From positions 1,421,818 through 1,485,817 of the forward strand of contig NZ_JAQZZL010000001.1 of NCBI RefSeq assembly GCF_028745505.1: a stretch of DNA of 64,000 nt. Reading direction: 5' to 3'. This document shows positions 9,501-33,426 of the stretch, in pieces (within the stretch, counting starts at the first letter, position 1; every line of letters starts with the position of its first letter). Below the pieces are notes generated by a model. The model was given only the letters and a program-made list of their open reading frames with translations, was not told the DNA's origin and searched no databases. Made by a program: the position numbers and the translations under genes. This DNA comes from Lentisphaera marina. Its GTDB lineage: Bacteria; Verrucomicrobiota; Lentisphaeria; Lentisphaerales; Lentisphaeraceae.

Positions 9501-9601
9501 TTTTTACTAAAAGTCCTTAGCTCATCTTCTAATTCGTTGATCGGTCGTTGGTTAAGGCTGTGAAGAGTTGTTACAATACCGTGCTGATGAAAATCACCCA
9601 T
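6596..9601 (-). CDS. Bifunctional protein: N-terminal GT-A glycosyl-3-phosphoglycerate synthase-like domain (GpgS/MpgS-like) fused to C-terminal GH13_18 sucrose-phosphorylase-family glycoside phosphorylase
   Basis: N-terminus has a GT-A DxD region (ALHDCDIL); C-terminal half carries sucrose-phosphorylase hallmarks ILPFSPFSSDDGFSVIDY, LVINHCS, FRLDAIAFLWKESGTECVHL, IASHDGIGVRP. Confidence 0.6.
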   Translation of the reverse strand: MGDFHQHGIVTTLHSLNQRPINELEDELRTFSKKKPMALLLPSLYSELEGPALANIVEELRDVDYLKQIVVGLDRADEDQYRNALQFFNCLPQKPQVMWHDGPRLRAIDALLQSYDLAPPHPGKGRNVWYMFGYILATEKAKAVALHDCDILTYKRDLLARLIYPVVHPNFSYKFCKGFYSRIASQKLNGRACRLLVTPLIRAMKQVCGPNEYLDYLDSFRYALAGEFSMKSDVLEDIRIPADWGLEMGVLSELQRNYSSNQICQVDIADNYDHKHQILSESDRSKGLSKMSADIAKSLFRKMATQGTVFSTGTIRTIKATYYRMALDLIDSYNNDALINGLSYDRHKEGQAVELFAENILHAGQDFLEKAMESPFMPSWKRVSAAVPDIFERLVDAVEKDHRDFSTSALQTPVLSPSTQRLKERISLHLREIYGSLDKDICTNTLTDKLMEQLNLSASPLTNTKQDKWSEDDVVLITYGDSIKKSDQSEPPLRTLHRFLHRELNKTVNSVHILPFSPFSSDDGFSVIDYDAINPDLGTWQEVEAIASEFKLMADLVINHCSSQSKWFKNFLEDKSPGKSYFIIPEDSIDLSKVVRPRATPLLTEFKTEKGEKSVWCTFSADQVDLNYANPEVLFEVIRILADYLKHGVRLFRLDAIAFLWKESGTECVHLHQTHEIIKLIRLVLENIEPSALIITETNVPNRENLSYFGNDNEAHMIYNFSLPPLLINSLLTGDCSHLKTWMMSMPPAKRGRTYLNFIASHDGIGVRPAEGLLNDTELSNMLSTLSNFGGHISMRQTPDGQNKPYEVNISLFDALKSTVKANSSESDQWHLDRFICAHTIMLALEGIPAIYIHSLLGTQNDHEFAEKTGRARSINRSQWDINELNEKLQDPSSHHMTVFNRLKQLIKIRRKQAAFHPNATQYTLHLGSTLFAFWRESLDRHQNIFAIHNISDQVQKIPLVELNLIATETWHDLLSDQSYDDLSAVIELAPYQCAWISNKV

Positions 9602-9636
9602 GGTGTTCTCCTTGTTTTAGACATCATTTGTCTTTG

Positions 9637-11421
9637 TTAAAATTGTATTCCATAGAGGGATAGAAAAAGTTCTTTTATGGCTTGCTGCCAAGCGGTGGGC
9701 CCGCTTTCGGTACATTTGATTGTATGAGGGGCAGATATTTCAAATGCAGCATGTTTTTTGTTAGGGATCAAAGCGCCTATGTCAGCTTTATTGAGCATTG
9801 TTTGATCATTAGGGCTATCTCCAAGGGCAACGACTAGCCAATGATCTGAAGTCTGTGTTTTAATATAATGGGATCGTAAGCTTTCAAGGGCGTCGGCTTT
9901 GTCGGCTTGTCCCATGAGGTGGATAAATTGACCGCCACGAATGACTCTGACGCCATGATCTTCGAGGCTCGCTTTGAACTCGGTGAAATTCTCAAAACTA
10001 TCATACCATAAGATAGGTTCAGTGGAATTGCGTTGTTTTGCTAAGTTCGCAGACTGTGGCTTAAGTCCAGTGGCAGAGCTTATTTCTTCCGCAGTCATAT
10101 CACTAAAACCAGTAAATTTATAATTGTGTTTCTGACGTAAGTTATGCGCTAGCTCTAAGATTGATTTTAAATCAATTGAACTTACAGAAATCTTGTAGTT
10201 TTCATGGTCGGGGTAAGCAATGATTCCACCGTTTTCAGCGACGATGGGTGTTGGTGGTGTTTTGAATTGTTGCTGAATTTGTTCAGCTAAAGGGATCATT
10301 TCCACAAGAGTTTTACTTGAATTGAAAATGACAGGGAAAGAAACTTTAGACAATTGTTCTAGGCTTTGATTGGCAGCTGCCCAACTATAGTTTTCATCTA
10401 GTAAGCTAGCGTCGAGGTCAGTAACCACTATGAGTTTAGACTTACTAATGTAGGGCGGCCAGTTTGATTCCTTATAAGATTGAGTATCGATCCCATGATT
10501 TTCGTTGAGATAAAAGGTGAGATCGCTTTTTTGAGGCATATCTTCAAGCATCCATCGAGTCAGCCTTTCATAGTGCATAATAAAGCGTTTCAACTGAGAG
10601 CTATTCATAATTTGAGAACTAGCACTCGGGTCAGTCTGTTGCTTTAATAATCGTTCTTCTTGTTGACTTCGCCATAGGTGAATACGTTCGAAATTGGGTG
10701 CTTTCAGCATAGCTAAATAGTCGAGTTTGCTGAAAAGGGCTTGGTAATCTTCCGTGAGTTGCTCGTTGATGTAGTGGCGCCAATGACCTTCTGGGTCCTC
10801 TAGCTGCTCTAGTTCATTAACATGTTTTTCTAGATGTTCGATGGCTTGTGGCTCGGCGCCAATACACCAACCTTCAAGAATAATGACATCAATAAATTGA
10901 TCTGGTAAATCGTCTCCATCGGGGAAGCGGTCATCTATGGCTTTATTGAATCTTGGGATTTGTATGTTTGAAATCTTTTCATCATCGGGTAGTGCCGTCA
11001 AACTGTCTAAGATTTGCTTAGCGAGTTGAAGGTCATGCGTGCCTGGGACCCCTCGCGTTTTTAAAAGTGGATGAATCGAATCGGCTAATTCGTCTCTTTC
11101 TTTTTTCGTCAAATAGAAATCATCAATGGAAAGAGTGATGACATTAAGGCCGTATTCCTGCAATAATTCTTTGAGTAAATCTGCGAGGGTTGATTTGCCA
11201 GTTCCTTGCGCACCATTGATGCCAAGAACAAAACTTTTCTTTTGCTGAGTTTTCTTTTCTTGTGACCATTGAAGTAAATTTAGGGACAATGGGAGGTAAT
11301 ACTGCCAAGCGGTACTTAAAAAAGAAGAAGGCAGTTCGTTCTTTTTGATGAATTTTTTTATAAAAGCTAAATGTGAGGAGGCTTTTTTACGCTCTGAGTC
11401 AAGCTTTGATTGGTCTTTCAT
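9637..11421 (-). CDS. Bifunctional protein: N-terminal P-loop D-glycerate 3-kinase-like domain (PRK/uridine-kinase fold) fused to C-terminal HAD-IIB glycosyl-3-phosphoglycerate phosphatase-like domain
   Basis: Walker A GINGAQGTGKSTL plus IDDFYLTKKER (glycerate-3-kinase family motif); C-terminus has HAD motif I VVTDLDASLLD and MpgP/GpgP-like cap region. Confidence 0.55.
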   Translation of the reverse strand: MKDQSKLDSERKKASSHLAFIKKFIKKNELPSSFLSTAWQYYLPLSLNLLQWSQEKKTQQKKSFVLGINGAQGTGKSTLADLLKELLQEYGLNVITLSIDDFYLTKKERDELADSIHPLLKTRGVPGTHDLQLAKQILDSLTALPDDEKISNIQIPRFNKAIDDRFPDGDDLPDQFIDVIILEGWCIGAEPQAIEHLEKHVNELEQLEDPEGHWRHYINEQLTEDYQALFSKLDYLAMLKAPNFERIHLWRSQQEERLLKQQTDPSASSQIMNSSQLKRFIMHYERLTRWMLEDMPQKSDLTFYLNENHGIDTQSYKESNWPPYISKSKLIVVTDLDASLLDENYSWAAANQSLEQLSKVSFPVIFNSSKTLVEMIPLAEQIQQQFKTPPTPIVAENGGIIAYPDHENYKISVSSIDLKSILELAHNLRQKHNYKFTGFSDMTAEEISSATGLKPQSANLAKQRNSTEPILWYDSFENFTEFKASLEDHGVRVIRGGQFIHLMGQADKADALESLRSHYIKTQTSDHWLVVALGDSPNDQTMLNKADIGALIPNKKHAAFEISAPHTIKCTESGPTAWQQAIKELFLSLYGIQF

Positions 11422-20488: not shown

Positions 20489-21427
20489 TTAGGGGCAGTA
20501 CTTTTGGTAGAAGTGACGGAATTGGTTGTAGGTCATTTGTAACTGTCGTGCTGCCTCGCTCTGATTGCCTGCGCAATCTTCGTAGGCTTTTAAAATTAGT
20601 TTGCGTTTAAAGTTCTCTACTCGTTCGTCATAGCTTAAACCCAAGTAATCAGCACCCGAAATAATAGCGGGGAGTTCATGTTCTTCTATATATGGCGTAT
20701 CACCAAAGAGGTAGAGTCGTTCAACAATATTTTTGAGCTCTCGAATATTACCTGGCCAATAATAGTCCATGAGAATCTCTATTGTATTACTACGGAATTT
20801 ACGTTCCTGCAAAGAAGGCATTTCTTCGTGAAGTAATTTTACGAAATGAACAATGAGCGCCGGAATATCATCCTTTCTTTGACGTAGAGAAGGGAGTTCG
20901 ATTTCAGCAAAAGTGAGACGGTCATATAAGTCGCGACGAAAAAGCTTTTCCTCCATGAGTTCTTCGAGATTTGCGTTTGTCGCAGAAATGAGGCGAACGT
21001 CAACTTGGATGGCTTTGGAGCTACCGACACGTTCAAAAGTTTGGTACTCAACCGCACGTAAGATTTGTTCTTGGAAATTCATCGGCATAATACCGACCTC
21101 ATCCATAAAGAGACTTCCTTTATCAGCCTGCTCCATACGACCAATTCGTCTTTCATTCGCTCCCGTGAAAGCGCCTTTTTCATGACCAAACATTTCCGAA
21201 GCAATAAGCTTTTCGGTAAAAGCTGCACAGTTTATGGTGACAAAATTTTCTTGAGCACGTGAACTAGCGCGGTGAATATAATTCGCCATCAGTTCTTTAC
21301 CTGTTCCCCGTTCACCTCTAATTAAAATAGGGCGAGGGACCTTAGCGATTTTTGCGACTTTCGCAAGTAATTTTTGCATCACTTTTGATTGTGCGATTCC
21401 AGTATATTCCATAATTGTAGCTCCCAT
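20489..21427 (-). CDS. pspF: Sigma-54-dependent transcriptional activator lacking an N-terminal receiver/sensor domain (PspF-like)
   Basis: AAA+ sigma-54 interaction domain with GERGTGKE Walker A, GAFTGA motif, WPGNIRELKN, C-terminal HTH; about 312 aa with no regulatory domain; divergent from pspA as in the enterobacterial psp locus. Confidence 0.8.
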   Translation of the reverse strand: MGATIMEYTGIAQSKVMQKLLAKVAKIAKVPRPILIRGERGTGKELMANYIHRASSRAQENFVTINCAAFTEKLIASEMFGHEKGAFTGANERRIGRMEQADKGSLFMDEVGIMPMNFQEQILRAVEYQTFERVGSSKAIQVDVRLISATNANLEELMEEKLFRRDLYDRLTFAEIELPSLRQRKDDIPALIVHFVKLLHEEMPSLQERKFRSNTIEILMDYYWPGNIRELKNIVERLYLFGDTPYIEEHELPAIISGADYLGLSYDERVENFKRKLILKAYEDCAGNQSEAARQLQMTYNQFRHFYQKYCP

Positions 21428-21603: not shown

Positions 21604-21619
21604 TTGGCACGGGTTTCGT
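21604..21619 (+). promoter_or_regulatory. Candidate sigma-54 (-24/-12) promoter for the pspA operon
   Basis: TTGGCACGGGTTTCGT: good -24 element (TGGCACG), degenerate -12 element (TTCG rather than TTGC); lies about 45 bp upstream of pspA ATG, divergent from a PspF-type activator gene. Confidence 0.4.
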
Positions 21620-21662
21620 TCTATGTTCACCATCTCAACAAAAATAAACGAGGAAACAAAAA

Positions 21663-22361
21663 ATGAATATCTTCAAAAGAGTAAGCAATATTATTAGTAG
21701 CAAGATTGATGACTTAATCGCTGGTTATGAAGATCCTGAAATGGCATTGGATTCTCTTATTCAAGATATGGAGAAGGGGATAGCTGAACTAAGAACTAAT
21801 GCCGCTAGTTGCATCAGTCAGAAAAAAATGACTGAGAAAAAATTAGCAAGCGCCGAAGCTGAAGTGAAGAAATGGCAGAACAATGCCATTGCTGCTTTAG
21901 AGAAAAGTAATGAGGACTTAGCTCGCAAGGCTTTGGAGCGTAAGAAAAGTTCTGAAGAAGAGCGTTTGGCATTAACGGCTCAATTAGCTGAAGAAACAGC
22001 ACTTGTTGATAAGATTAAGACCCAACTTCATCAAGTTGAAGATAAGATTCAAGAAGCTCGCAAGAAGCGCGATACGCTCATAATTAAAAAGCGTGCCGCA
22101 GATGCTCGTAAGAAAATGGCTGAAACTTCTCAAGCGCTTGATACGGGTATTAGCTCGAGTACAGATTCAGTATTGAATGGCTTCGCGGAATTCAATAAGT
22201 ACGAAGAGAAAATTGAGCGCGATGTCGCTATGTCTGAGGCGATGATGGAAGTCAATAAAGTTTCTGTCGATGACTTAGAAGAGCAATTCAAAGAATTACA
22301 GGCAGATGATGAAATCTCTGCTGAGCTTGAAGCACTAAAAGCTCAAGTTAAGAAGAAGTAA
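21663..22361 (+). CDS. pspA: Phage shock protein A (PspA/IM30/Vipp1, ESCRT-III superfamily)
   Basis: Collinear with E. coli PspA over its full length (e.g. NEDLARKALERK vs REDLARAALIEK; FKELQADDEISAELEALKAQV vs [21 protein letters not shown]); SD GAGGA 9 nt upstream. Confidence 0.85.
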   Translation: MNIFKRVSNIISSKIDDLIAGYEDPEMALDSLIQDMEKGIAELRTNAASCISQKKMTEKKLASAEAEVKKWQNNAIAALEKSNEDLARKALERKKSSEEERLALTAQLAEETALVDKIKTQLHQVEDKIQEARKKRDTLIIKKRAADARKKMAETSQALDTGISSSTDSVLNGFAEFNKYEEKIERDVAMSEAMMEVNKVSVDDLEEQFKELQADDEISAELEALKAQVKKK

Positions 22362-22374
22362 GTTCAGAGAAGGT

Positions 22375-22818
22375 ATGAATCCACAGATTTCTCAGATTTT
22401 CACAGAGCTGAGAATGATGTGGTTTGATGAAGGAGAAGGGGTGAATTATTCAAAACAGGATGATCCAGAAACTTATGAAGTGATTGGAGCAGCTTATAAA
22501 GTGCATGGAGAGTTAGGTCATGGTTTTTTAGAGGCCGTTTATCAAGATGCTTTAGAGGTGGAGTTATTAAAACAAGAGATTCCGTATCAAAGGGAATTGA
22601 AGTTGGATATTTATTATTCAGGAGAAAAGTTAAATTCTTTTTACAAAGCGGACTTTATTTGTTATGGAACTTTGCTAGTAGAATTGAAGGCATTAACGAA
22701 GTTGAGTGGAGCCGAAGAATCTCAAGTTTTAAATTATCTAAAAGCTACTGGTCTTAAAAAAGCTCTATTAATCAACTTTGGATCAAGCTCAATCCAAATA
22801 AAACGTTTTGTTCTGTGA
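22375..22818 (+). CDS. GxxExxY family protein (PD-(D/E)xK-like fold)
   Basis: Core ETYEVIGAAYKVHGELGHGFLEAVYQDALEVEL matches the GxxExxY signature; gene starts 13 bp after the pspA stop. Confidence 0.65.
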   Translation: MNPQISQIFTELRMMWFDEGEGVNYSKQDDPETYEVIGAAYKVHGELGHGFLEAVYQDALEVELLKQEIPYQRELKLDIYYSGEKLNSFYKADFICYGTLLVELKALTKLSGAEESQVLNYLKATGLKKALLINFGSSSIQIKRFVL

Positions 22819-23021
22819 GAATCTGAGGAATCTGTGGATGAATTTTAAAAAATTCTTGCGAGGGACAAAAACAAGACACTTTAGCAAAATTAGTCATCCA
22901 CCAAGATAAAGTTGCAGGTTTTTGGCTGCAGTGACAGGAATCTTGAAACATGTTCAAAAACTCAGTGTTGATTTAGATCGAGAACAAGTCATAGTTAATT
23001 ATTATTTATTAGGAGTGAGTA

Positions 23022-23657
23022 ATGTCTGAAATATTAGATTATGCCATGCGGCTACATATCTTTCCATTTAGTGCTTTGTTGGTGCTAATGATACTGTTTT
23101 GGTTAACAGTCATTATTGGAGCTGCCGATGTGTCTCTCTTTGACTTTGATTTGGACGTCGATGTAGATGCTGACCTTGATATAGATGCGAGCTCCGAATC
23201 GAGCCCGAGTTTCTTTCGATCACTTGCAGATTTTCTCAATTTGGCTGAGGTCCCCTTTATGGTGGTACTTACTTTCTTTGTGCTCTTTTCATGGGCGGGC
23301 TTAGTCTATGCTGAGTCATTAGTCAATGTGTCAGGCGAGGGCTTTATTCAATGGATCAGTTACGTACCAATTTTATTAGGGGCTTTGATTATCTCAAAAT
23401 ATATTTCATCACCTTTTGGTAAAGTTGTTAAAGTTTTAAACAACAACCCAGAAGACCAGGATACTGCGGTGGGAAACATGGGAGTACTTTTACAAGATGT
23501 GAATGAAGAGCACGGACGTGCAAGTATTGAAACAAAATCCGCACCCATAGAAATTCTTTGTTATACAGAAAATGAAAAAATAAAAAAGGGGGAGAAGGTT
23601 TTAGTTTTAAGCTGGAATGAGGGAAGGCGAAAATTTTTAGTTACAAAATATTCATAA
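23022..23657 (+). CDS. YqiJ-like inner-membrane protein with C-terminal NfeD-type OB-fold
   Basis: N-terminal TM, acidic DxD repeat segment (FDFDLDVDVDADLDIDA), two more TMs, and a C-terminal beta-rich tail like NfeD/YqiJ; directly upstream of a flotillin gene as in E. coli yqiJK. Confidence 0.55.
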   Translation: MSEILDYAMRLHIFPFSALLVLMILFWLTVIIGAADVSLFDFDLDVDVDADLDIDASSESSPSFFRSLADFLNLAEVPFMVVLTFFVLFSWAGLVYAESLVNVSGEGFIQWISYVPILLGALIISKYISSPFGKVVKVLNNNPEDQDTAVGNMGVLLQDVNEEHGRASIETKSAPIEILCYTENEKIKKGEKVLVLSWNEGRRKFLVTKYS

Positions 23658-23682
23658 ATTTATATAAAAGAAAAAAATAGGA

Positions 23683-25821
23683 GTGATTATGGAATCATTA
23701 TTAAACGTATTTGTTGCCGCAGGTAACGTAGTGGGTCTCGTTGTAGTCGGGGTCATATTATTATTATTGGTAGGCTTTTTCTTTATGCTTGCCAGTTGGT
23801 TCAAAAAAGTGCCGCAGGGTAAAGCTATTATTAGAACGGGTCTAGGTAAAACCAAAGTATCATTTACTGGTATTTATATTGTACCAGTCGCTCACAGACT
23901 CGAGCTCATGGATATCGCCGTGAAAAGAATTGAAATAAATCGTCGTGCATCAGATGGTCTGATCTGTAAAGACAATATGCGAGCAGATATTACAGTAGCA
24001 TTTTTCGTACGTGTGAATAAAACAGAGCACGACGTACTTTCTGTAGCGAGTATGATTGGTGTTGAACGTGCATCTGATCAGTCTGCCTTAGTAGAACTTT
24101 TTGATGCCAAATTCTCTGAGGCCTTAAAAACTGCGGGTAAAATGTTCGATTTTGAAGATCTTTACACACAACGCCAGCAATTCAAAGATGAGATTATCCA
24201 GATTATTGGTACTGACCTTAATGGATATAGTCTTGAGGATGCCGCGATTGACTACCTTGAGCAAACGCCAAAAGAGATGCTGAGTTCAGATAATATTCTC
24301 GATGTTGTTGGTCTAGAAAAGATTGCGACTATTACTCGTGAGAAAAAAGTTAATATTAATGAACAAGAACGCGAAGAAGAAAAAGCGATTACTCGTCAGA
24401 ATGTTGATGCACGTGAAAAAATCCTCGACATGGAAAAAGAGTTAGCTGAAGCAGAAGAAAAACAAAAACTCGAAATTGCAAACATCGAAGCGAGAACCAA
24501 AGCCGAAGCTGAAGTCGTTTCTCAGCAGGAACTCAAGCGTTCAGAAGAAGCGCGTATTCGTACGCAAGAAGACGTTCAAGTTGCTGAAGAGAACAAAGAT
24601 CGTCAGATCATTGTCGCTCAGAAAAATAAAGAACGTACTGAAGCAGTTGAACAAGAACGTGTCATTCGTGATCGCGATTTAGAAGCTACAGAGCGTGAGC
24701 GCGTGGTAACTCTTGCGGATATCGCAAAAGAAAAAGCGGTGGAAGTTGAAAAGAAAAATATTCAAGAAGTCATCCGTGAGCGTGTTACTGTAGAACGCAG
24801 TGTTGTGGAAGAAGAAGAGAAAATTAAAGATACCAAAGAATTTGCTGAAGCAGAACGTCACAAAGGCGTTGAAATCACTAAGGCAGAGGAAGAGGGTAAA
24901 AGTACTCTGATTCGTGAAGAACAAATTGCCGCCGCACATAAACGTGCAGCAGAACTCAAGGCCGAAGAAGAAAAAATTGTTGAAGTTACGGCTGCAGAAG
25001 CTCGCAAACGTTCGGCAGAACTTTGGGCTGAACAAGAAGTTATTGAAGCGGAAGCGCGTTTTGAAGCCAGCACGAAAGATGCTGAAGCCAAGAAAAAACT
25101 TGCTGAAGGTGTAACTGCGGAAGAAGCTGCAGTTGGTTATGCAGAAGCGAATGTAAAAACTGCCATGGCAGATGCACTCGAGAAAGAGGGTACTGCAGAG
25201 GCTAAAGTCATTGGTATGAAAGGCTCTGAAGAAGCTAAAGTTATCGGCCTTAAGGGTGAAGAAGAAGCGAAAGCTACTGGCGCGATGTACACTGTAGAAG
25301 CAGAAGGTACACATGCTAAAGCCGAAGCAATGAAAGCCCTTGATGGTGTGGGTAAAGAACACGAAGAGTTCAAACTCCGACTCAATAAAGAGAAAGAAGT
25401 GGAACTCGCGGAAATTCGTATCCAGGCAGAAATTGCCGATGCACAAGCAAGTGTGCTTAAATCAGGTCTCGAAAATAGTAAGATCGAGATTGTCGGTGGC
25501 GAAAGTATGTTCTTTGACAGCATGCTTCAGTCAATCACCAAAGCTCGTCAGACTGATCAGCTCATTGGTAAATCAGAAGTTCTTACAGATGTTAAAGAAA
25601 CTTTCTTCAATGACGATAAGAGCTTTAAAGAAAGCTTAGCTGACTTTGTCGATAAATTTGGTGTGAGTTCTGAGGATCTCAAGAATTTATCTGCAGCAGC
25701 GCTTTTAACTAAGCTTTCAGGTCAGGCTTCAGGCGGAGATAAAAGCCTAATTGATGGCTTGCTCAGTAAAGTTGAAGCACTGGGCTTAGGTAGCCAGAAC
25801 GCTGGCAAGTTCCTTAAATAG
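23683..25821 (+). CDS. Flotillin-like SPFH/Band-7 protein (YqiK-like) with long E/A/K-rich coiled-coil tail
   Basis: N-terminal TM, SPFH core (VPQGKAIIRTGLGK...), then about 300 aa of charged heptad repeats typical of flotillins. Confidence 0.8.
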   Translation: MIMESLLNVFVAAGNVVGLVVVGVILLLLVGFFFMLASWFKKVPQGKAIIRTGLGKTKVSFTGIYIVPVAHRLELMDIAVKRIEINRRASDGLICKDNMRADITVAFFVRVNKTEHDVLSVASMIGVERASDQSALVELFDAKFSEALKTAGKMFDFEDLYTQRQQFKDEIIQIIGTDLNGYSLEDAAIDYLEQTPKEMLSSDNILDVVGLEKIATITREKKVNINEQEREEEKAITRQNVDAREKILDMEKELAEAEEKQKLEIANIEARTKAEAEVVSQQELKRSEEARIRTQEDVQVAEENKDRQIIVAQKNKERTEAVEQERVIRDRDLEATERERVVTLADIAKEKAVEVEKKNIQEVIRERVTVERSVVEEEEKIKDTKEFAEAERHKGVEITKAEEEGKSTLIREEQIAAAHKRAAELKAEEEKIVEVTAAEARKRSAELWAEQEVIEAEARFEASTKDAEAKKKLAEGVTAEEAAVGYAEANVKTAMADALEKEGTAEAKVIGMKGSEEAKVIGLKGEEEAKATGAMYTVEAEGTHAKAEAMKALDGVGKEHEEFKLRLNKEKEVELAEIRIQAEIADAQASVLKSGLENSKIEIVGGESMFFDSMLQSITKARQTDQLIGKSEVLTDVKETFFNDDKSFKESLADFVDKFGVSSEDLKNLSAAALLTKLSGQASGGDKSLIDGLLSKVEALGLGSQNAGKFLK

Positions 25822-25963
25822 AAAGCTTTAGAGGAAGAGTTTAGGCTCTTCCTCAAGCTTCATAACTTGTTCGAATAGCCTCTGATTCGAAAGGATTTGG
25901 ATTAGAGGCATTATTGAATAACAAAGTTAATAAAATTTAGGGATAAATTAGAGAGGAGAGTCT

Positions 25964-28900
25964 ATGTCAGAAGAAGAAAAAACAGAGCAACTTGGGGGTG
26001 GAACCTACGAGCTACTAAAAGGTCGTATCGATACTCAGGTTAAAGATTTACAGGGCCGCATGGAGGGGCTCAATGAGCAGCGAAAAGAAGTCTTTGGCTC
26101 TATTGCGACATCACTTATTGGAAGTGATAAAATTACGACGCCAAACAATTGCATTGCACAAGATTTTTGTACGATAGGTCAGAACTTTATTTTTGGTTAC
26201 AATGTAACTTTAGGGCTTAAGAGCCACACGAGTTTAGAGGACGTCTTTGCGATTTATTTATACGAAGATGGACGTTTTCACGAACAAAATTTAGAGCTTA
26301 TACAAAGCGACGAATTTCTAGACAAATTTGCCGACCTCTACAAATACTATAAAAAAGCGCAGTTTGTGCGTTTTTCGACTCGTGGGCACAAGCTTTACAT
26401 GGTCTTTCGCATTGGCGAAGATATTGATGATCTCAAGGTTTTTAAGTGGACGATTAATGAAGGTTCATTGACTTATGTTGATGACCGTAGTGTGCACGAA
26501 TACAGTTATCCCCCACAGCATGAATTTGAATGGCAGCGTACGACCCGCGACATGCACGTAGAAGGCGATCACCCGCACGTTTCCATTGATGATCGCGTTT
26601 TTGTAGAGACAGTTGGTGGTGACTTGACGATCAAAGTAGAAAATAATACTGGTGATGGCAGTGGTATCTACGAAGAAGATGTGGAAAACAAAGACCAAAC
26701 TTTAGACGATGGCGATATTAATTACGCAGTATTAGATAATCTAATTATGCTAAAAATACGTCCTTATCAAGAGAAAGAGGACCGTTATATTGTCTATAAT
26801 GACAAGTTGAAAGAAGCGGTTAGGATTGATCGAATCCGCAATTCATGCGTGCTTTTGCCAGAAGGACACGGGATTATATTTTCCAATGGTTACTACCTGC
26901 AAAATGGTGAGTATAAGCTCTTTGATCTCGATGTAAATAATTTAAAATTTGACCGTAAGCAAGCTTCTCCAAATGGCGAAGATATGCTTTACGTTTTTTA
27001 TAATCGTGAACAGGGCGTGTATGTTCTGCAGTTTTATAATCTAATTGATCAGCGTGTGTCGACTCCGATTATTTGTCATGGTTTTTCACTATTCCCCGAT
27101 GGTAAGATGGTTTACTTCAAGTCAGAGGATGAACCACGTAAGCACCATACGATTCAAGTTTGGCAAACCCCATTTACTGCTGCTGATTTTATACCAGAAG
27201 TGAGTGAAGAACAGGCACAGAGTCAGATTTATAAAATTGGCAATAAAGAAGTTGTCAGTTGCATGGCGGAATGTCAGGAAGTTATCAATTTACTTTCCCG
27301 TGGCGAGAGTTACGCCGACCTCTATGTCGATGTCGTCAAAAAATCGACAGATATTCTCGATGGTTACTTTTGGTTGAAAGAAGAGGGCGTGGGTAATTTA
27401 GCTGACCCACTTGATGGCATTCGCTTGGCTTCGACCACGGCAATTGACGAATACGAGAAAGTCAAAAAACTTCGTAAAGAAACGGATAAAATGACCAAAG
27501 AGGTTGCGGCTGAGGCTGAAGAATTATTCCGCCAAATTCCCTATACCGCCTTTGATCATATAGATAAATTTGTTGGGAAACTTAGTGAGTTACGTCAGTT
27601 GCGTTCACATGTGATTGAACTCAAAGAACGCGCTTATGCAGATATTAACTTTTGTGATGAAATCGAAAAAGAAATCTTAGAGAACTCGGACAAAATTTCT
27701 GGACGTTGCATCGATTTCCTTGCCGATGAAAAATCACTCGATCCCTATCGTGAGCAAATTTCAGCTCACGAAGAGCAACTTGCGGTTTTTGCAAAAGTGA
27801 TGGAAGGCAAAGAACTCGAGGAAAAGCTTGCGGAGACCGCAAGTCAGCTTGAGATGTTAATTGAAACAGTTTCGAATTTAAAAATCGATGACCCGACGCG
27901 GACCACGCAAGTCATTGATTCCATCTCTAGTGTTTTTACTATACTGAACCAAACGAAAGGCAAGCTCAAAAACCGTATCAAAGACTTGATGTCTGTGGAA
28001 GGGAAAGCCGAGTTTAATGCACAGCTCAAATTACTCAATCAAGGTGTGGTCAATTACTTAGATGTGGCGAATGAACCAGCTGTGGTAGAAGAATATTTGA
28101 CTAAGGCGATGGTGCAGTTAGAGGAACTTGAGAGTCGTTTTTCTGAGTTTGATGAATTCATCCCCGTCTTAGCTGAAAAACGCGATGAAATTCAAAATGC
28201 GTTTGAGCAACGCCGTATTTTCCTTAGTGAAGAGCGTGCAAGAAAAGCAGAAGCCTACATGGCCGCTGCCGACCGAATTTTAAAATCCATTAGCAATCGC
28301 TTAAAGAACTTTAAAGAAGTTAAGGAGATTTCTTCTTATTTCGCCGCGGATATGATGGTGGATAAACTACGTGATTTAGTTGGTAAACTACGTGATGCGG
28401 GTGATTCAGTTCGCGCAGATGACTTGGAAAGTCGTTTGAAAAGTCTTAAAGAAGAAGCGATTCGTCAGCTCAAGGATAAGACTGAACTCTATGTTGAAGG
28501 AGAAGATGCAGTACGTTTTGGTAAGCATGTTTTCTCGGTCAATAAACAGGATCTCAAACTCACCTTAGTTTCGCGTGAAGGCGACTTTTATTACCATTTA
28601 ACAGGAACTCGCTTTTTCGAGAAAGTTGAATCAGAAGAACTAGAAGAGACACGTGAAGTCTGGAGCATGGAATGTGTTTCGGAGAATAGCGAAGTCTATC
28701 GAGCAGAGTTTTTGGTTAAAGCCATAATTGATGACTTAGAAGAGAAAGACTTAGCTGAACTTATTGCTAAAAGTGATGAAGAATTAGTAGAGTACGTTCG
28801 CCAATTTATGGCACCGCGTTACGAGGAGAATTATACCAAGGGTATTCATGACCATGATGCCGCTTTAATTCTCCGACAAGTGCTCATCCTCATGCGCGAT

Positions 28901-31165
28901 ATGGATTTACTTAACTTCTCGCCAATGGTTAGATCTGCAGCACAGCTCTTTTGGTTGAGTTTGGAAGAAGGTGAAGACAAAGAAAAACTCCTGAGCCGCA
29001 TTAAGAATTTTGGCATTATGTATCAGTTATTCCCCGGTCGTAAGCCAGGTCAAGATTTAGTTGATGATTTGAGGGAGTCTTTTGATGTGTCTTTAGCGAG
29101 TGAACTATGTTCCGAACTCGAGAGAGGCGAAGCGGTGGACTACCTCATACGCGAATTGGGACGTCATGATCACTTCATTATTTCTCATGCGGCGAGTCAA
29201 TTGCATCACGCATTTGAAGCCCATTTGAAGTCGGCGCGTTTTAAGCTCAAATTAGACGAATCCTTGGATGCTCAATTTGCGGGCAATATTTCTCAACGTT
29301 TTGAAATTGTCAGCGAATGGATGAAGGCGTTTATCGAAATGAAAGGGGATGAATTTAATTCTGCTTACCTCAATGAAGCCGCTTTAATTTTTGCTGCCCA
29401 GAGTTTTAATCCTCTGCACGTGATTCAGGCCGAGATGGAAAAAGAAATCGCAGATATGGTCGGTTCACATTCACTTCTTAAAGAAGGTGGAATTTATAGC
29501 TTAGATTTCCAAGACTTTTCAAAGCGCTTAGATAGTTTCGTACATATAACGGCACCAAAATATCGTCGCTATGTGGATCTAAAGCACGAATTAAGTGAAC
29601 AGCAAAAAAGCTTCATGCGCCTAGATGAATTTAAGCCACGTGTTTTGAGCTCATTTGTTCGTAACCGTTTAATTAACGAAGTTTATCTCCCCATGGTTGG
29701 CGATAACCTAGCGAAACAAATGGGGACCCTAGGTGAGAATAAGCGTACTGACCTTATGGGGATGTTGCTTTTGATTTCACCTCCAGGTTACGGTAAGACG
29801 ACTCTGATGGAATACATTTCCTCATGCTTAGGCTTAGTCTTTATGAAGATTAACGCTCCAGCCATTGGTCATGCCGTCACTTCTCTAGATCCTGCGGAGG
29901 CACCCAATGCGTCTGCAGCGGAAGAACTCAAGAAATTGAATTTGGCTTTCGAGATGGGAGATAATGTGATGATTTATCTTGATGATATTCAGCACTCCAA
30001 TCCCGAGCTCTTACAGAAATTCATTTCCCTCTGTGATGGTCAAAGAAAAATTGAAGGTGTCTACAAAGGGCAGCCAAAGACTTATGACCTACGTGGACGT
30101 AAAGTTTGTGTGATTATGGCGGGTAACCCCTATAATGAATCGGGTGAAAAATTCCAGATTCCAGATATGCTTTCCAACCGTGCAGATACCTATAATTTGG
30201 GTGACATTATCGGCGATACCAAAGAGGCCTTCTATTCGTCTTACTTAGAAAACTCATTAACATCTAATCCTGCACTTGCGAAACTCGCAACCGCAGGTCG
30301 AAAAGATGTGGAATCCTTTATTGCCGCGGCTGAAAAAGGAAGTAGTCAGGGGGTTAGTATTGAGGGTGATTTCTCAACGGCTGAAATGAACGATATTATT
30401 GAAGTTTTAAAGAAATTACTCGTCGTCCGCGATGCTATTGCGGCAGTCAACTTAGAATATATTCGTTCAGCTTCTATTCAGGATGATTACCGTACAGAAC
30501 CTTCCTTCAAACTACAGGGTTCATACCGTAATATGAATAAGATTACTGAGAAGGTATTGCCCATTATGAATGATGAAGAATTGGATACACTGATTCAAAG
30601 TCATTATAATAATGAATCGCAGACGCTAACGGGTGATGCTGAATTTAACTTACTCAAATTCCGTGAACTCACCGATCATTTGAGTGATGAAGATATTCAG
30701 AGAATTGGCGATATTCGCAATACTTTTGGTCGTAATCAACTCTTTGCGAATGCAGATGAGAATGATCCAGTGTCGCAAGTTGTGGTTCAGCTCGGTCAAT
30801 TTTCTGAAAAACTTAGTCAGATTAGCGAAGTTATTGCTGCGGCCTCCGCAAGTAATTCCAAAAAGTCTGGTTTTAGTTTAGATGAAGATACCATGGCTAA
30901 GTTGACGAAATTATTCTATCCAGATGAAAAGGATAAACGTGATCGTCATGTTGTTGTTCCTGGTAAGGTAGAGATCGTCAATAATGTTCCAGACTTTTTC
31001 TCTCACATCCTCAAGGATCAATTTGAGGTCATGAAGAATTGGATTAAGCCCTTGATGGCAGACAACATGATCGAACGCGATGATATTGCCGACCTCAAGA
31101 ATTCAATGCTCGACCTTTCAGCTAATTACCAACAGCTACTCGAGCGCATGGGCCAAGACGAATAG
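25964..31165 (+). CDS. Giant (1733 aa) uncharacterized protein with a single C-terminal MoxR/AAA_5-class AAA+ ATPase domain
   Basis: Continuous 5.2 kb ORF. Walker A LLLISPPGYGKTTL near residue 1290, Walker B MIYLDDIQHSNPELLQKF, sensor-1-like VCVIMAGNPYNESGEKFQIPDMLSNRADTY resembling the MoxR ATQNP...LDRF block. The about 1250 N-terminal residues are mostly helical/coiled-coil with no motif I recognise. Confidence 0.7.
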   Translation: MSEEEKTEQLGGGTYELLKGRIDTQVKDLQGRMEGLNEQRKEVFGSIATSLIGSDKITTPNNCIAQDFCTIGQNFIFGYNVTLGLKSHTSLEDVFAIYLYEDGRFHEQNLELIQSDEFLDKFADLYKYYKKAQFVRFSTRGHKLYMVFRIGEDIDDLKVFKWTINEGSLTYVDDRSVHEYSYPPQHEFEWQRTTRDMHVEGDHPHVSIDDRVFVETVGGDLTIKVENNTGDGSGIYEEDVENKDQTLDDGDINYAVLDNLIMLKIRPYQEKEDRYIVYNDKLKEAVRIDRIRNSCVLLPEGHGIIFSNGYYLQNGEYKLFDLDVNNLKFDRKQASPNGEDMLYVFYNREQGVYVLQFYNLIDQRVSTPIICHGFSLFPDGKMVYFKSEDEPRKHHTIQVWQTPFTAADFIPEVSEEQAQSQIYKIGNKEVVSCMAECQEVINLLSRGESYADLYVDVVKKSTDILDGYFWLKEEGVGNLADPLDGIRLASTTAIDEYEKVKKLRKETDKMTKEVAAEAEELFRQIPYTAFDHIDKFVGKLSELRQLRSHVIELKERAYADINFCDEIEKEILENSDKISGRCIDFLADEKSLDPYREQISAHEEQLAVFAKVMEGKELEEKLAETASQLEMLIETVSNLKIDDPTRTTQVIDSISSVFTILNQTKGKLKNRIKDLMSVEGKAEFNAQLKLLNQGVVNYLDVANEPAVVEEYLTKAMVQLEELESRFSEFDEFIPVLAEKRDEIQNAFEQRRIFLSEERARKAEAYMAAADRILKSISNRLKNFKEVKEISSYFAADMMVDKLRDLVGKLRDAGDSVRADDLESRLKSLKEEAIRQLKDKTELYVEGEDAVRFGKHVFSVNKQDLKLTLVSREGDFYYHLTGTRFFEKVESEELEETREVWSMECVSENSEVYRAEFLVKAIIDDLEEKDLAELIAKSDEELVEYVRQFMAPRYEENYTKGIHDHDAALILRQVLILMRDMDLLNFSPMVRSAAQLFWLSLEEGEDKEKLLSRIKNFGIMYQLFPGRKPGQDLVDDLRESFDVSLASELCSELERGEAVDYLIRELGRHDHFIISHAASQLHHAFEAHLKSARFKLKLDESLDAQFAGNISQRFEIVSEWMKAFIEMKGDEFNSAYLNEAALIFAAQSFNPLHVIQAEMEKEIADMVGSHSLLKEGGIYSLDFQDFSKRLDSFVHITAPKYRRYVDLKHELSEQQKSFMRLDEFKPRVLSSFVRNRLINEVYLPMVGDNLAKQMGTLGENKRTDLMGMLLLISPPGYGKTTLMEYISSCLGLVFMKINAPAIGHAVTSLDPAEAPNASAAEELKKLNLAFEMGDNVMIYLDDIQHSNPELLQKFISLCDGQRKIEGVYKGQPKTYDLRGRKVCVIMAGNPYNESGEKFQIPDMLSNRADTYNLGDIIGDTKEAFYSSYLENSLTSNPALAKLATAGRKDVESFIAAAEKGSSQGVSIEGDFSTAEMNDIIEVLKKLLVVRDAIAAVNLEYIRSASIQDDYRTEPSFKLQGSYRNMNKITEKVLPIMNDEELDTLIQSHYNNESQTLTGDAEFNLLKFRELTDHLSDEDIQRIGDIRNTFGRNQLFANADENDPVSQVVVQLGQFSEKLSQISEVIAAASASNSKKSGFSLDEDTMAKLTKLFYPDEKDKRDRHVVVPGKVEIVNNVPDFFSHILKDQFEVMKNWIKPLMADNMIERDDIADLKNSMLDLSANYQQLLERMGQDE

Positions 31166-31237
31166 TCGCAGTTCAATCATAATAATAAAAAGACTCTAAT
31201 TACAGAGCAATAATAAAATTAACAGGAGAGGAGATAT

Positions 31238-32764
31238 ATGTTTATATTTGTATTGGGATTAATGGTACTAGCTCTAGGAGCGGTTATACCCATTCTTTTA
31301 GGCGATAAAATGGATGGGGTGATTAAAGTATTCTTCCGTGTTTCGGCAGGAGTGATTGCTTTGGTGTTAATTGTAGCTTCGACTGCAATTTATGTAGAAG
31401 ATGATCAAGCGGGAATTGTGATTGTTAAATTTGGTAAAGATTTACCTGTGGGGCAAATTATTGCCACCAAGGGAGAAAAAGGACCACAAGCCCAAGTATT
31501 GCCTCCAGGCTGGCACTTTTTATACTGGCCTTGGTTATATGATCTAAAAACAGTCGATAACATGACGATCCCCCAAGGAAATGTAGGTGTTGTAGAAGCG
31601 ATGGACGGAGCCAATTCTTTGCCTAAAGGAGAAATATTTGCTCAAGAATGGGAGAACCCCGTTGATATGCTCAATGCTCAGATGTTCATGGAGAAAGGAA
31701 ATAAAGGACCTCAATTAACTGTATTAACGCCAGGTCAATACCGCTACAACCCACGCCTTTTTAAGATTACGGTGAAAAAAGCCTTAGAGGTGCCCATTGG
31801 TACCGTTGCCGTTATTAAAGCGAATGCGGGTAAACCTTATGAAATCACAGAGAAAGTGGAGATGGTTAATGGCGTGCCAATTGTACCCAAAGGTTTTAGA
31901 GGGATTTGGAATAAAGCACTTTCACCTAATGCGTATTACCTGCATCCTGATGCCTTTGTTGTGACTTTAGTTCAGACAACCAATCGAGTTTATAATTACG
32001 TTCAAAAGAATAGCATTACGGTTAAAACGAGTGATTCATTTGAGTTCCCAGTGGATGTTCGTGTATCAGTGAAAATATCAGCTGAAGACGCTCCCTATGT
32101 CGTTGCAATGTTGGCAAATCCTGACGCCGACTTGGACCGTAATGGTTTTGTCGTACTTGAAGACCGCGTCATTCTCCCCACTATTCGTGCTATTTTTAGA
32201 AATAATGCTGAATCGCGTGGAGCAATTCAGTATGTTCAGGAACGTTCTCAGATCGAAGAAAGTGCGACGGCCACGTTTGCAGAAAAGTTAGCGACATACC
32301 GAGTGACTACGGATGGAGTCTATGTGGCAGATATTGGTATTCGTGATACTGAAGAAGGCAAGAAGCTCTTGTCGACTCAAACTGATAAAGAAGTTGCTAA
32401 GCAAGAAGTAGATACTTTTAAAGTACAGCAAACAGCTGAAATTGAGCGTGCACAAGTAGTAAAAGCTAAAGAAGATGCGGAACAAGAGCAGTTAAAAGCT
32501 AAAGCAAGAGCCAAAGTGGATATTGCTGAGCAGGAGGCTCAGGCTGAGATTAAATTGGCGGAAGGGCGAGCTCAAGCTTACATGAAAAAAATGGAAGCAC
32601 TTGGAGGTGTTGATAATTTTGTTAAACTAGAAATGCTTCGCTTAGCGATGGAGCAGTGGGACGGTAAAGTCCCAGAAATTCTTCTCATGGGTGGAGGTGA
32701 TTCAAGTAGTGCAGAAGCAGTGAACTCATTGATAATGAAAAAGCTTCAAGCAGATAAGAAATAA
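31238..32764 (+). CDS. Second SPFH/Band-7 family membrane protein with coiled-coil C-terminus
   Basis: Two N-terminal TMs, SPFH-like core, then Q/E/A/K-rich coiled coil (QEVDTFKVQQTAEIERAQVVKAKEDAEQEQLKAKARAK). Confidence 0.6.
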   Translation: MFIFVLGLMVLALGAVIPILLGDKMDGVIKVFFRVSAGVIALVLIVASTAIYVEDDQAGIVIVKFGKDLPVGQIIATKGEKGPQAQVLPPGWHFLYWPWLYDLKTVDNMTIPQGNVGVVEAMDGANSLPKGEIFAQEWENPVDMLNAQMFMEKGNKGPQLTVLTPGQYRYNPRLFKITVKKALEVPIGTVAVIKANAGKPYEITEKVEMVNGVPIVPKGFRGIWNKALSPNAYYLHPDAFVVTLVQTTNRVYNYVQKNSITVKTSDSFEFPVDVRVSVKISAEDAPYVVAMLANPDADLDRNGFVVLEDRVILPTIRAIFRNNAESRGAIQYVQERSQIEESATATFAEKLATYRVTTDGVYVADIGIRDTEEGKKLLSTQTDKEVAKQEVDTFKVQQTAEIERAQVVKAKEDAEQEQLKAKARAKVDIAEQEAQAEIKLAEGRAQAYMKKMEALGGVDNFVKLEMLRLAMEQWDGKVPEILLMGGGDSSSAEAVNSLIMKKLQADKK

Positions 32765-32817
32765 TTCAAATTTATCGGTGCTAGAGTTTTTTAGCACTGA
32801 CGAGTTTTGGGAGGGAT

Positions 32818-33309
32818 ATGAAATATATAATGAAGGATAAGTTTTTTTCTCTTGGTGATAATTACGAGATTAAAACCGAGGATGAAAAATTAGCTTATAC
32901 AGTGAAAGGCAAATTTCTGAGTTTTGGAAATAAGCTCGATGTTTTTGATCACTCAGGTAAAAATGTTGCCTTTATTGAACAAAAGTTATTATCAATGATG
33001 CCCTGTTATCGTTTGTACAAAGGAGGGCTTATGTTTGCCGAAGTCATGCAAAAATTTGCTTGGTTTAAAAAGAATTTTCTTTTGGATGTTCCAGGACCAA
33101 ACGATTACACTATAAAAGGTGATTTTTGGGGACATAAATACAAATTTTATCGTTCGGGAAAAGTTGTGGCAAGAGTTGATAAGAAAATGTTTACTTGGGC
33201 CGATAGCTATGGAGTTGATATCGTCGAAGGAGAAGATGATCTTTCAATTATCTCAACAGTCATCATTATTGATCTAGTGAGTAATAATAATAGTGGTTCA
33301 GAGTTCTAA
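32818..33309 (+). CDS. LURP-one-related / tubby-C-terminal-like (DUF567, scramblase-like fold) protein
   Basis: 163 aa; pattern DKFFSLGDNYEIKTEDEKLAYTVKGKFLSFGNKLDVFDHSGKNVAFIEQKLLSM...FKKNFLLDVPG matches the LOR/DUF567 family repeating beta-hairpin motif. Confidence 0.5.
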   Translation: MKYIMKDKFFSLGDNYEIKTEDEKLAYTVKGKFLSFGNKLDVFDHSGKNVAFIEQKLLSMMPCYRLYKGGLMFAEVMQKFAWFKKNFLLDVPGPNDYTIKGDFWGHKYKFYRSGKVVARVDKKMFTWADSYGVDIVEGEDDLSIISTVIIIDLVSNNNSGSEF

Positions 33310-33392
33310 TACAACAATAGCATTTTGATGAATGTAGGCCATGGAAGTGGGCTTATGAACAACTAGTAATTAGCCATAGATGATAGTAAAAA

Positions 33393-33426
33393 AAGACGAA
33401 CTTGTGAAAGTTCGTCTTTAGTTTTT
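33393..33426 (+). terminator. Rho-independent terminator ending the pspA operon (bidirectional)
   Basis: Stem AAGACGAACT-tgtgaa-AGTTCGTCTT followed by TAGTTTTT; preceded by A7, so it can also terminate the convergent minus-strand gene. Confidence 0.75.

Follow-up and report, generated by a model that had tools for sequence, protein, structure and literature searches.

What does a 1733-residue ATPase encoded between two SPFH genes do, and on which partner does it act? The question is raised by a locus of Lentisphaera marina in a stretch of 64,000 nucleotides (contig NZ_JAQZZL010000001.1, positions 1,421,818 to 1,485,817 of the forward strand), which was analysed as a whole and is called the window below; all coordinates refer to it. 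A preliminary description, made from the sequence alone, had pointed to a continuous 5.2 kb open reading frame (ORF) at 25964-31165 that encodes a lone MoxR-class AAA+ domain behind a long N-terminal extension, and this ORF of 1733 amino acids (aa) is present exactly as claimed. The answer that we favour, with moderate confidence, is that the ATPase works in obligate partnership with a YqiK-type flotillin and with YqiJ, and that it remodels assemblies of flotillin, of PspA or of both. The genes on which this reading turns are the following.

25964-31165, + strand: ATPase ORF, 1733 aa, ATG start, with DUF3686, DUF7902 and a C-terminal AAA+ module
23683-25821, + strand: YqiK-type flotillin, 712 aa, with a transmembrane (TM) segment, an SPFH domain, a Glu/Ala-rich coiled coil and a conserved C-terminal region
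23022-23657, + strand: YqiJ/YuaF-type 3-TM protein (YqiJ_N, E value 1.8e-9; three TM-like segments)
21663-22361, + strand: pspA (PspA/IM30), first gene of the operon, recognised with Pfam

The ATPase family and its flotillin partner

The neighbourhood of the ATPase gene was scanned in one genome per GTDB species, using the best 80 of at least 431 species with a relative of the ATPase, and the resulting loci belong to Bacteroidota, Planctomycetota, Verrucomicrobiota, Desulfobacterota (Desulfobacterales), Clostridia and Fibrobacterota. In 76 of the 80 loci, from at least six phyla, the immediate upstream neighbour, on the strand of the ATPase, is a flotillin orthologue (~50% identity), which bears out the membrane and SPFH context noted in the preliminary description, and three of the four loci without it have less than 1.5 kb of contig upstream. 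The fourth exception, L047, has many mobile elements around it; a transposase and an integrase are found there, together with a STAND NTPase and a toxin-like gene. In 65/80 loci a YqiJ-like membrane protein is encoded ahead of the flotillin; besides flotillin and YqiJ, the 80 loci share no further conserved neighbour family, and nothing downstream of the ATPase is conserved among them. Distant ATPases (35-41% identity) occur in Proteus, Vibrio, Photobacterium, Halomonas, Streptomyces, Nonomuraea, Deinococcus and on the Pseudomonas megaplasmid pQBR103, and in both of the distant loci inspected (Streptomyces and pQBR103; ATPase 38-41% identity) a flotillin/SPFH gene is again directly upstream, the order in Streptomyces being hypothetical protein, flotillin family protein and 'DNA repair ATPase', the database name of the family. 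A pspA gene accompanies the cassette in the L. marina window, in L. araneosa and on pQBR103, and also in ~22-26 Bacteroidota loci, where a CesT_Tir_1 protein and a divergently transcribed HTH-S24 regulator are encoded with it. The universal partner of the ATPase is flotillin and not PspA, whose linkage is lineage-specific.

On pQBR103 (locus L085, NC_009444.1 85112-97641, Pseudomonas fluorescens), the cassette is fused to a polyamine-type psp operon, with the order PspA, rhomboid protease, DUF2491, DUF350, DUF1190, glutathionylspermidine synthase, hypothetical protein, SPFH protein and 'DNA repair ATPase'. This locus joins two operon classes that Ravi et al. (2024) treat separately.

The identity of the upstream partner was obtained from profile comparison. 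The 712-aa protein was matched neither by Pfam Band_7/Flot nor by NCBIfam, nor by phmmer against the PDB, and one family profile gave a weak match to QmcA only. When a profile of 33 orthologues was aligned to E. coli YqiK with hhalign, the match had a probability of 100% (E value 1.6e-39) and spanned the TM, SPFH and coiled-coil parts, and because of this match the protein is assigned as a flotillin. Its C-terminal 250 aa are conserved in the partners of the distant ATPases from Streptomyces (39% identity, E value 2e-34) and pQBR103 (37% identity, E value 5e-23), whereas nothing significantly similar was seen in E. coli YqiK, whose gene does not lie beside such an ATPase; the comparison, with YqiK as the single unpartnered comparator, is suggestive of a C-terminal block specific to ATPase-linked flotillins. 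An ORF of 255 aa on the opposite strand (24679-25446) lies inside the Glu/Ala-rich coiled-coil part of the flotillin gene and is most likely a shadow ORF of repetitive coding sequence and not a gene.

The adjacency data fit equally well an arrangement in which flotillin organises or gates the ATPase at membrane microdomains, as HflK/C does with FtsH, and in which it would act on substrates other than flotillin itself, for example PspA polymers or membrane proteins that are damaged or wrongly inserted. SPFH cages that enclose or regulate an AAA+ enzyme are known from HflK/C-FtsH (PMC13220708, PMC12005517), and the propeller head of the ATPase, described below, could recognise a substrate. On the other hand, the ATPase lacks a TM segment as well as any effector domain such as a protease, no conserved neighbour apart from YqiJ offers itself as a substrate, and the partner-specific C terminus of flotillin suggests a direct contact with flotillin. 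We therefore regard the role of a scaffolded client, the main rival to our reading, as possible but doubtful, and prefer flotillin as a target of the ATPase over flotillin as its scaffold.

The ATPase itself is an ordinary member of a catalogued family. Its sequence is 100% identical to the NCBI entry 'DNA repair ATPase [Lentisphaera marina]', and its orthologues in L. profundi and L. araneosa share 87-89% identity with it. More than 4,500 significant homologues were found, a lower bound, among them full-length relatives in Planctomycetota, Acidobacteriota (Sulfidibacter) and Gammaproteobacteria that share 47-56% identity with the query; it follows that this is a real gene under strong purifying selection. 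Pfam assigns DUF3686 (PF12458) to aa 28-469 (E value 4.1e-182, profile positions 1-448 of 448), DUF7902 (PF25472) to aa 591-673 (window 27734-27982; E value 3e-24 / 2e-25) and a P-loop domain to aa 1268-1390, with AAA (PF00004) at an E value of 5e-6 and 27.4 bits. The combination of DUF3686, DUF7902 and AAA is common to all 120 homologues listed, 102 of which are 1730-1901 aa long; the domain order is unchanged in distant representatives, and five unusually long or short representatives that were checked showed no fusion to flotillin or to another domain. The N terminus, called uncharacterised in the preliminary description, is thus partly covered by DUF3686 and DUF7902, and it is not a known enzyme. 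NCBIfam gave no match to the ATPase, no TM segment was predicted anywhere in it, Pfam scans detected no protease, DNA-binding or nuclease domain, and a profile-profile self-comparison revealed no internal repeats. When aa 470-870, 860-1260 and 1561-1733 were searched with Pfam at E values up to 10, DUF7902 alone was returned.

The MoxR-like module and its deviations

The second line of evidence is the state of the ATPase site, which was analysed by motif conservation in 121 sequences (120 representatives of 50%-identity clusters plus the query), by a search of the module (aa 1230-1600) against 1.84 billion cluster representatives, and by AlphaFold2 models, which are predictions and cover aa 1-500 and aa 1201-1733. 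The model of aa 1201-1733 was built from 41 sequences, with a predicted local distance difference test (pLDDT) score of ~70-92 over the core and lid. The features of the module and of the tail behind it are listed here, with conservation counted among the 121 sequences.

29741-30208, + strand: AAA+ alpha/beta core, aa 1260-1415 (Pfam, AlphaFold2 model and structure searches)
29777-29803, + strand: Walker A SPPGYGKTT, aa 1272-1280 (K1278 in 121/121)
29855-29908, + strand: conserved 18-residue loop between beta2 and helix 2, aa 1298-1315, at the pore-loop/helix-2-insert position
29966-29995, + strand: Walker B VMIYLDDIQH, aa 1335-1344 (D1340 in 121/121, D1341 in 120/121)
30044-30103, + strand: predicted pre-sensor-1 beta-hairpin, aa 1362-1375 within 1361-1380 (AlphaFold2 model)
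30110-30193, + strand: sensor 1 (N1388), MoxR-like post-sensor-1 block NPYNESGEKFQIPDMLSNR and candidate arginine finger R1406 (121/121 each)
30512-30535, + strand: candidate sensor 2, LQGSYRNM (R1522 in 120/121; opens a lid helix in the model)
30764-31162, + strand: C-terminal tail, aa 1601-1733 (pLDDT below 55, conservation 0.34-0.59)

The Walker A, Walker B and sensor-1 motifs named in the preliminary description are all present, at aa 1272-1280, 1335-1344 and 1383-1410, the last of these being the block from sensor 1 to the arginine finger, VIMAGNP...SNRADTY. The motifs are intact and not degenerate, and with catalytic residues 99-100% conserved it follows that the ATPase active site is maintained. 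The search with the module returned 801 cluster representatives at an E value of 1e-3 or better and 323 at 1e-30 or better, and in the complete representatives, which are 1590-2036 aa long, the module lies at about residues 1200-1650; the small number of matches and their fixed position therefore define an AAA+ family that is isolated in sequence and keeps to a single architecture.

The predicted fold has the canonical order beta1, P-loop, alpha1 and beta2 to beta5, followed by a long helical lid, in which beta5 and the sensor-2 helix are ~110 residues and five helices apart; a minimal lid has fewer. Two strands (aa 1362-1367 and 1370-1375) form the predicted hairpin directly before the sensor-1 strand. 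Structure searches with this model by two methods gave the MoxR ATPases NorQ and CbbQ (PDB 9qh4 and 6l1q) as the nearest structures, at a sequence identity of 10-15%. Clade assignment by sequence alone failed: searches of solved structures with the C-terminal fragment and the family profile found no solved structure for any member of the family and returned p97, Rix7 and RuvB at the level of the P-loop (E value ~1e-3), the RuvB and p97 matches spanning ~40 residues around it. With Pfam, AAA_5 just reached its threshold (22.2 bits, cut-off 22.0), the generic AAA model scored higher, and no match was reported for the MoxR-specific model AAA_3.

Further likeness to CbbQ/NorQ, which belong to AAA+ clade 7, lies in the predicted pre-sensor-1 hairpin, in the G-S-x-R sensor-2 motif and in the post-sensor-1 block NP..E.G..F.IP..L..R, which includes the arginine finger. 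NorQ and CbbQ, however, are stand-alone proteins of ~250-270 aa whose long helix-2 hairpin engages a VWA/MIDAS partner (PMC13036017), whereas the module here is the C-terminal quarter of a protein of 1733 aa, with a DD Walker B and no predicted helix-2 hairpin. A beta-hairpin insert in helix 2 is the defining feature of the MoxR clade, and MoxR ATPases typically act on a VWA partner whose 'finger' enters the pore (PMC13036017, the 2026 NorQD paper). At the corresponding position of our protein, the loop aa 1298-1315 is well conserved (G1302, V1305, L1308 and D1309 invariant; H1303 and P1310 at least 90% conserved), and neither strands nor a beta-hairpin are predicted in it (AlphaFold2, pLDDT ~83-86). 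No VWA domain was found with Pfam in the ATPase or its six operon neighbours, nor in any conserved neighbour family of the 80 loci, in agreement with the preliminary description. On its predicted structure the module is MoxR-like and closest to MoxR, and not a bona fide MoxR; of the MoxR class first proposed, the proximity to NorQ and CbbQ stands, and the DD Walker B, the lack of a predicted helix-2 hairpin and the absence of a VWA partner from the operon depart from it.

The Walker B motif has the form hhhhDD, in which the aspartate D1341 replaces the usual catalytic glutamate of hhhhDE. A comparable 'DDIQF' box is found in DnaA, an ATPase of slow and switch-like action; the likeness may serve as a lead only.

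The same results bear on the proposal, implied by the database name, that the protein is a DNA-repair ATPase resembling SMC or RecN. It is backed by the Pfam text for DUF3686 ('ATPase involved in DNA repair'), by the NCBI names derived from that text and by the weak matches to RuvB, but these matches are at the P-loop level, cover ~40 residues as do those to p97, and have E values of ~1e-3, and in structure the module is nearer to the MoxR chaperones than to RuvB. Domain searches gave neither a DNA-binding nor a nuclease domain, the neighbours are membrane proteins in 76/80 loci, and no repair gene is conserved among them. The name, which was probably given because the coiled coil resembles those of SMC/RecN-type proteins, has no support, and we consider a function in DNA repair extremely improbable.

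The head, the central region and the Lentisphaera operon

In front of the ATPase module lie a head domain and a long helical part, for which the following features were recorded.

25997-26095, + strand: N-terminal long helix, aa 12-44 (AlphaFold2 model)
26111-27166, + strand: beta-propeller-like domain, aa 50-401 (~27-28 strands, ~7 four-stranded blades)
27206-27460, + strand: helices aa 415-499, closing the head domain (AlphaFold2 model)
27413-28498, + strand: conserved helical region with heptad-like segments, aa 484-845 (heptad scan; contains DUF7902)
28541-29668, + strand: region aa 860-1235, without Pfam match or heptad signal, the least conserved internal part

The model of aa 1-500 (pLDDT 85, predicted template modelling score (pTM) 0.83) agrees with the beta-rich N terminus and possible propeller suggested earlier, since ~27-28 strands are predicted in aa 50-401, and in it the helix aa 12-44 would pack with the helices aa 415-499 as a bundle clasping the propeller. 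Of the ~900 aa of coiled coil that had been anticipated, a heptad scan, a crude method, retains heptad-like segments in aa 484-845, and aa 860-1235 are without heptad signal. Conservation reaches 0.75-0.84 over aa 631-870, and because the region is so well conserved, specific contacts are suggested for aa 484-845, not the role of a generic spacer. The region aa 860-1235 shows no profile similarity to the AAA+ module, so that it does not hold a degenerate second AAA+ copy.

In L. marina, the ATPase belongs to an operon (21663-33309) that includes, or is accompanied by, the following features in addition to those given above.

20489-21427, - strand: PspF-like sigma-54 activator, divergent from pspA (Sigma54_activat, E value 1.9e-64, and HTH_8)
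21605-21620, + strand: tentative sigma-54 -24/-12 element TGGCACGGGTTTCGTT (TGGCAC-N5-TCGT), 43 bp 5' of the pspA ATG
22375-22818, + strand: GxxExxY/PDDEXK_3 gene of the PD-(D/E)XK type, 147 aa, between pspA and yqiJ
31238-32764, + strand: second SPFH/Band_7 membrane protein, 508 aa (Band_7, E value 2.4e-8)
32818-33309, + strand: LURP-one-related (LOR, Tubby-like fold) protein, last gene of the operon
33392-33419, no strand assigned: bidirectional terminator-like hairpin with a 12-bp stem, at the operon end

The ATPase is thus flanked by two SPFH genes, as had been described, with the YqiK-type flotillin identified by hhalign upstream and the Band_7 protein downstream. The latter has two N-terminal TM segments and an extra domain of 200 aa before Band_7. 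It is present together with the LOR gene in L. araneosa, and the pair was seen in the genus Lentisphaera only, being absent from a 55%-identical metagenome-assembled genome of Lentisphaerales and from all 80 other loci; in L. araneosa, an IS110 transposase is inserted between the two genes. The operon forms a block on the + strand, nearly all other long ORFs of the window being on the - strand, and scans of the 64-kb window found no tRNA genes and no Rfam families. Pfam detected no receiver domain in the PspF-like activator. The element TGGCACGGGTTTCGTT has two mismatches to the sigma-54 -24/-12 consensus, and the 25 bp around it are identical in L. araneosa, where the intergenic region is 82% identical overall; from its position near the PspF-like gene and its conservation in one sister species, it is a plausible candidate for a sigma-54 promoter.

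Small nuclease-fold genes recur in and around the cassette. At the site of the PDDEXK_3 gene, L. araneosa retains just a 53-aa PDDEXK_3 remnant and tiny ORFs, and in three Akkermansiaceae loci (L040, L050 and L075) a PDDEXK_3 gene lies directly upstream of the ATPase, preceded by flotillin in L040 and L050. A DUF559 gene (Vsr-like endonuclease fold, ~140 aa) occurs near the ATPase in seven Bacteroidota loci (L007, at 9536-9958, L009, L013, L026, L046, L071 and L079), usually between the flotillin and ATPase genes, as a second small nuclease-fold gene inside the cassette that is unrelated to PDDEXK_3. The PDDEXK_3 gene looks like a repeatedly inserting and decaying selfish element, not a part of the system.

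Such genes could also indicate a role in anti-phage defence or another biological conflict, with an SPFH/NfeD sensor in the membrane acting through the large ATPase as its effector. The repeated insertion of nuclease-fold genes (PDDEXK_3 'GxxExxY' and DUF559) within the cassette agrees with this, as do the presence of the ATPase gene on some megaplasmids and the one locus beside a STAND NTPase and mobile elements. However, the nuclease-fold genes vary in position and decay in L. araneosa, as expected of selfish insertions; 0/7 operon proteins match PADLOC-DB v2 models; the ATPase gene was found in 0/50,697 phage records and in few plasmids (13/72,556 records, mostly megaplasmids or chromids); and ~50% full-length identity across phyla, with a fixed three-gene core, is atypical of fast-evolving defence genes, the evolution of the family looking slow and vertical. 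A defence function is, in our judgement, quite unlikely.

A proposed remodeller of flotillin assemblies

According to the reading that we prefer, namely that the ATPase is the obligate partner of flotillin and of YqiJ, the NfeD-like membrane partner of flotillin, the protein would be the cytoplasmic ATPase of a distinct MoxR-related AAA+ family, probably hexameric, whose head (propeller and helical bundle) and helical stalk would dock onto a cytoplasm-facing flotillin oligomer, while the C-terminal AAA+ ring would use ATP to assemble, disassemble or reshape flotillin assemblies. Co-encoded PspA assemblies, which are of the ESCRT-III type, would be remodelled likewise during membrane stress, and in Lentisphaera the module would be built into the psp operon, probably under the control of PspF and sigma-54. 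A passage of PMC10936438 cites a report that an SPFH protein of B. subtilis recruits PspA to the membrane, and a contextual inference by Ravi et al. (2024; PMC11237479) matches the role proposed here.

Several points weigh against this role: (i) gene adjacency proves neither physical interaction nor which protein acts on which; (ii) most Planctomycetota and Verrucomicrobiota loci are without PspA linkage, and PspA therefore cannot be the universal substrate; (iii) the DD Walker B may mean slow, switch-like hydrolysis and not processive remodelling; (iv) the MoxR 'finger-in-pore' mechanism may not apply, because neither a helix-2 hairpin nor a VWA adaptor was found; (v) the AlphaFold2 models cover the two ends of the ATPase, on either side of its central ~750 aa; (vi) the sigma-54 motif occurs in the window at the frequency expected by chance (33 matches against 30.8 expected); and (vii) literature searches on the family and on its flotillin/SPFH context found no experimental study of any member.

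Much of the system is already known from the annotation of the gene, from the Pfam entries for its family and from a published account of the operon. In that account, Ravi et al. (2024, mSystems; PMC11237479) described a 'Betapropeller+Coiled-coil+AAA-ATPase' protein beside flotillin, YqiJ and PspA, with the same domain architecture, the same flotillin and YqiJ neighbours, and PspA in some lineages; with this description and the Pfam/NCBI family preceding it, the architecture is not novel. Their Dokdonia operon is exactly the Bacteroidota form with PspA, CesT/Tir and HTH-S24. The Lentisphaera operon has a PspF-like activator in contrast to the HTH-S24 regulator and CesT/Tir chaperone of Bacteroidota, and adds the second SPFH and the LOR-fold genes to the cassette; since it contains PspA and lacks CesT/Tir, it is a variant of the extended form of Ravi et al. 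The AAA+ clade of the ATPase was not assigned in that work. What is new here is (i) the MoxR-like assignment with three deviations, namely the DD Walker B, no predicted helix-2 hairpin and no VWA partner; (ii) the quantification of flotillin as universal partner; (iii) the partner-specific flotillin C terminus; (iv) the PspF/SPFH/LOR extension specific to Lentisphaera; and (v) the judgement that the database name is unsupported.

Comparison with other AAA+ systems helps to place the family. The coupling of an SPFH scaffold gene to an inner-membrane AAA+ ATPase recalls HflK/C-FtsH, but FtsH is a membrane-anchored AAA protease of another clade, whereas the ATPase here is soluble, without a protease domain and with an N-terminal extension of 1250 aa. 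Midasin and dynein, the force-transducing machines to which the architecture had been likened, carry six concatenated AAA+ modules per chain, in contrast to the single module found here; the analysis gave no sign of force transduction, and the likeness is speculative. The likeness to Vps4/ESCRT-III would be a functional analogy only, based on the position of an AAA+ gene beside PspA, a member of the ESCRT-III superfamily, in some lineages; Vps4-type enzymes are classical-clade AAA proteins with an MIT domain, and the present ATPase is not of this kind.

According to a 2025 review, bacteria appear to be without a Vps4-like ATPase regulating PspA (ESCRT-III) polymers (PMC7619361), and a large, well-conserved and flotillin-linked family is an obvious candidate for an energy-dependent step in flotillin and PspA dynamics. 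In a stronger form of the proposal, which we put forward tentatively and consider unlikely as it stands, the family would use ATP to remodel the flotillin assemblies of bacteria and, in lineages with the linkage, those of PspA; it would be equivalent to Vps4 in function and be built as a MoxR-type ring in which the VWA 'finger' adaptor has been replaced by the flotillin C terminus or by the ATPase's own head. If this were true, bacteria could build and take apart their membrane scaffolds in an energy-dependent cycle while the envelope is under stress.

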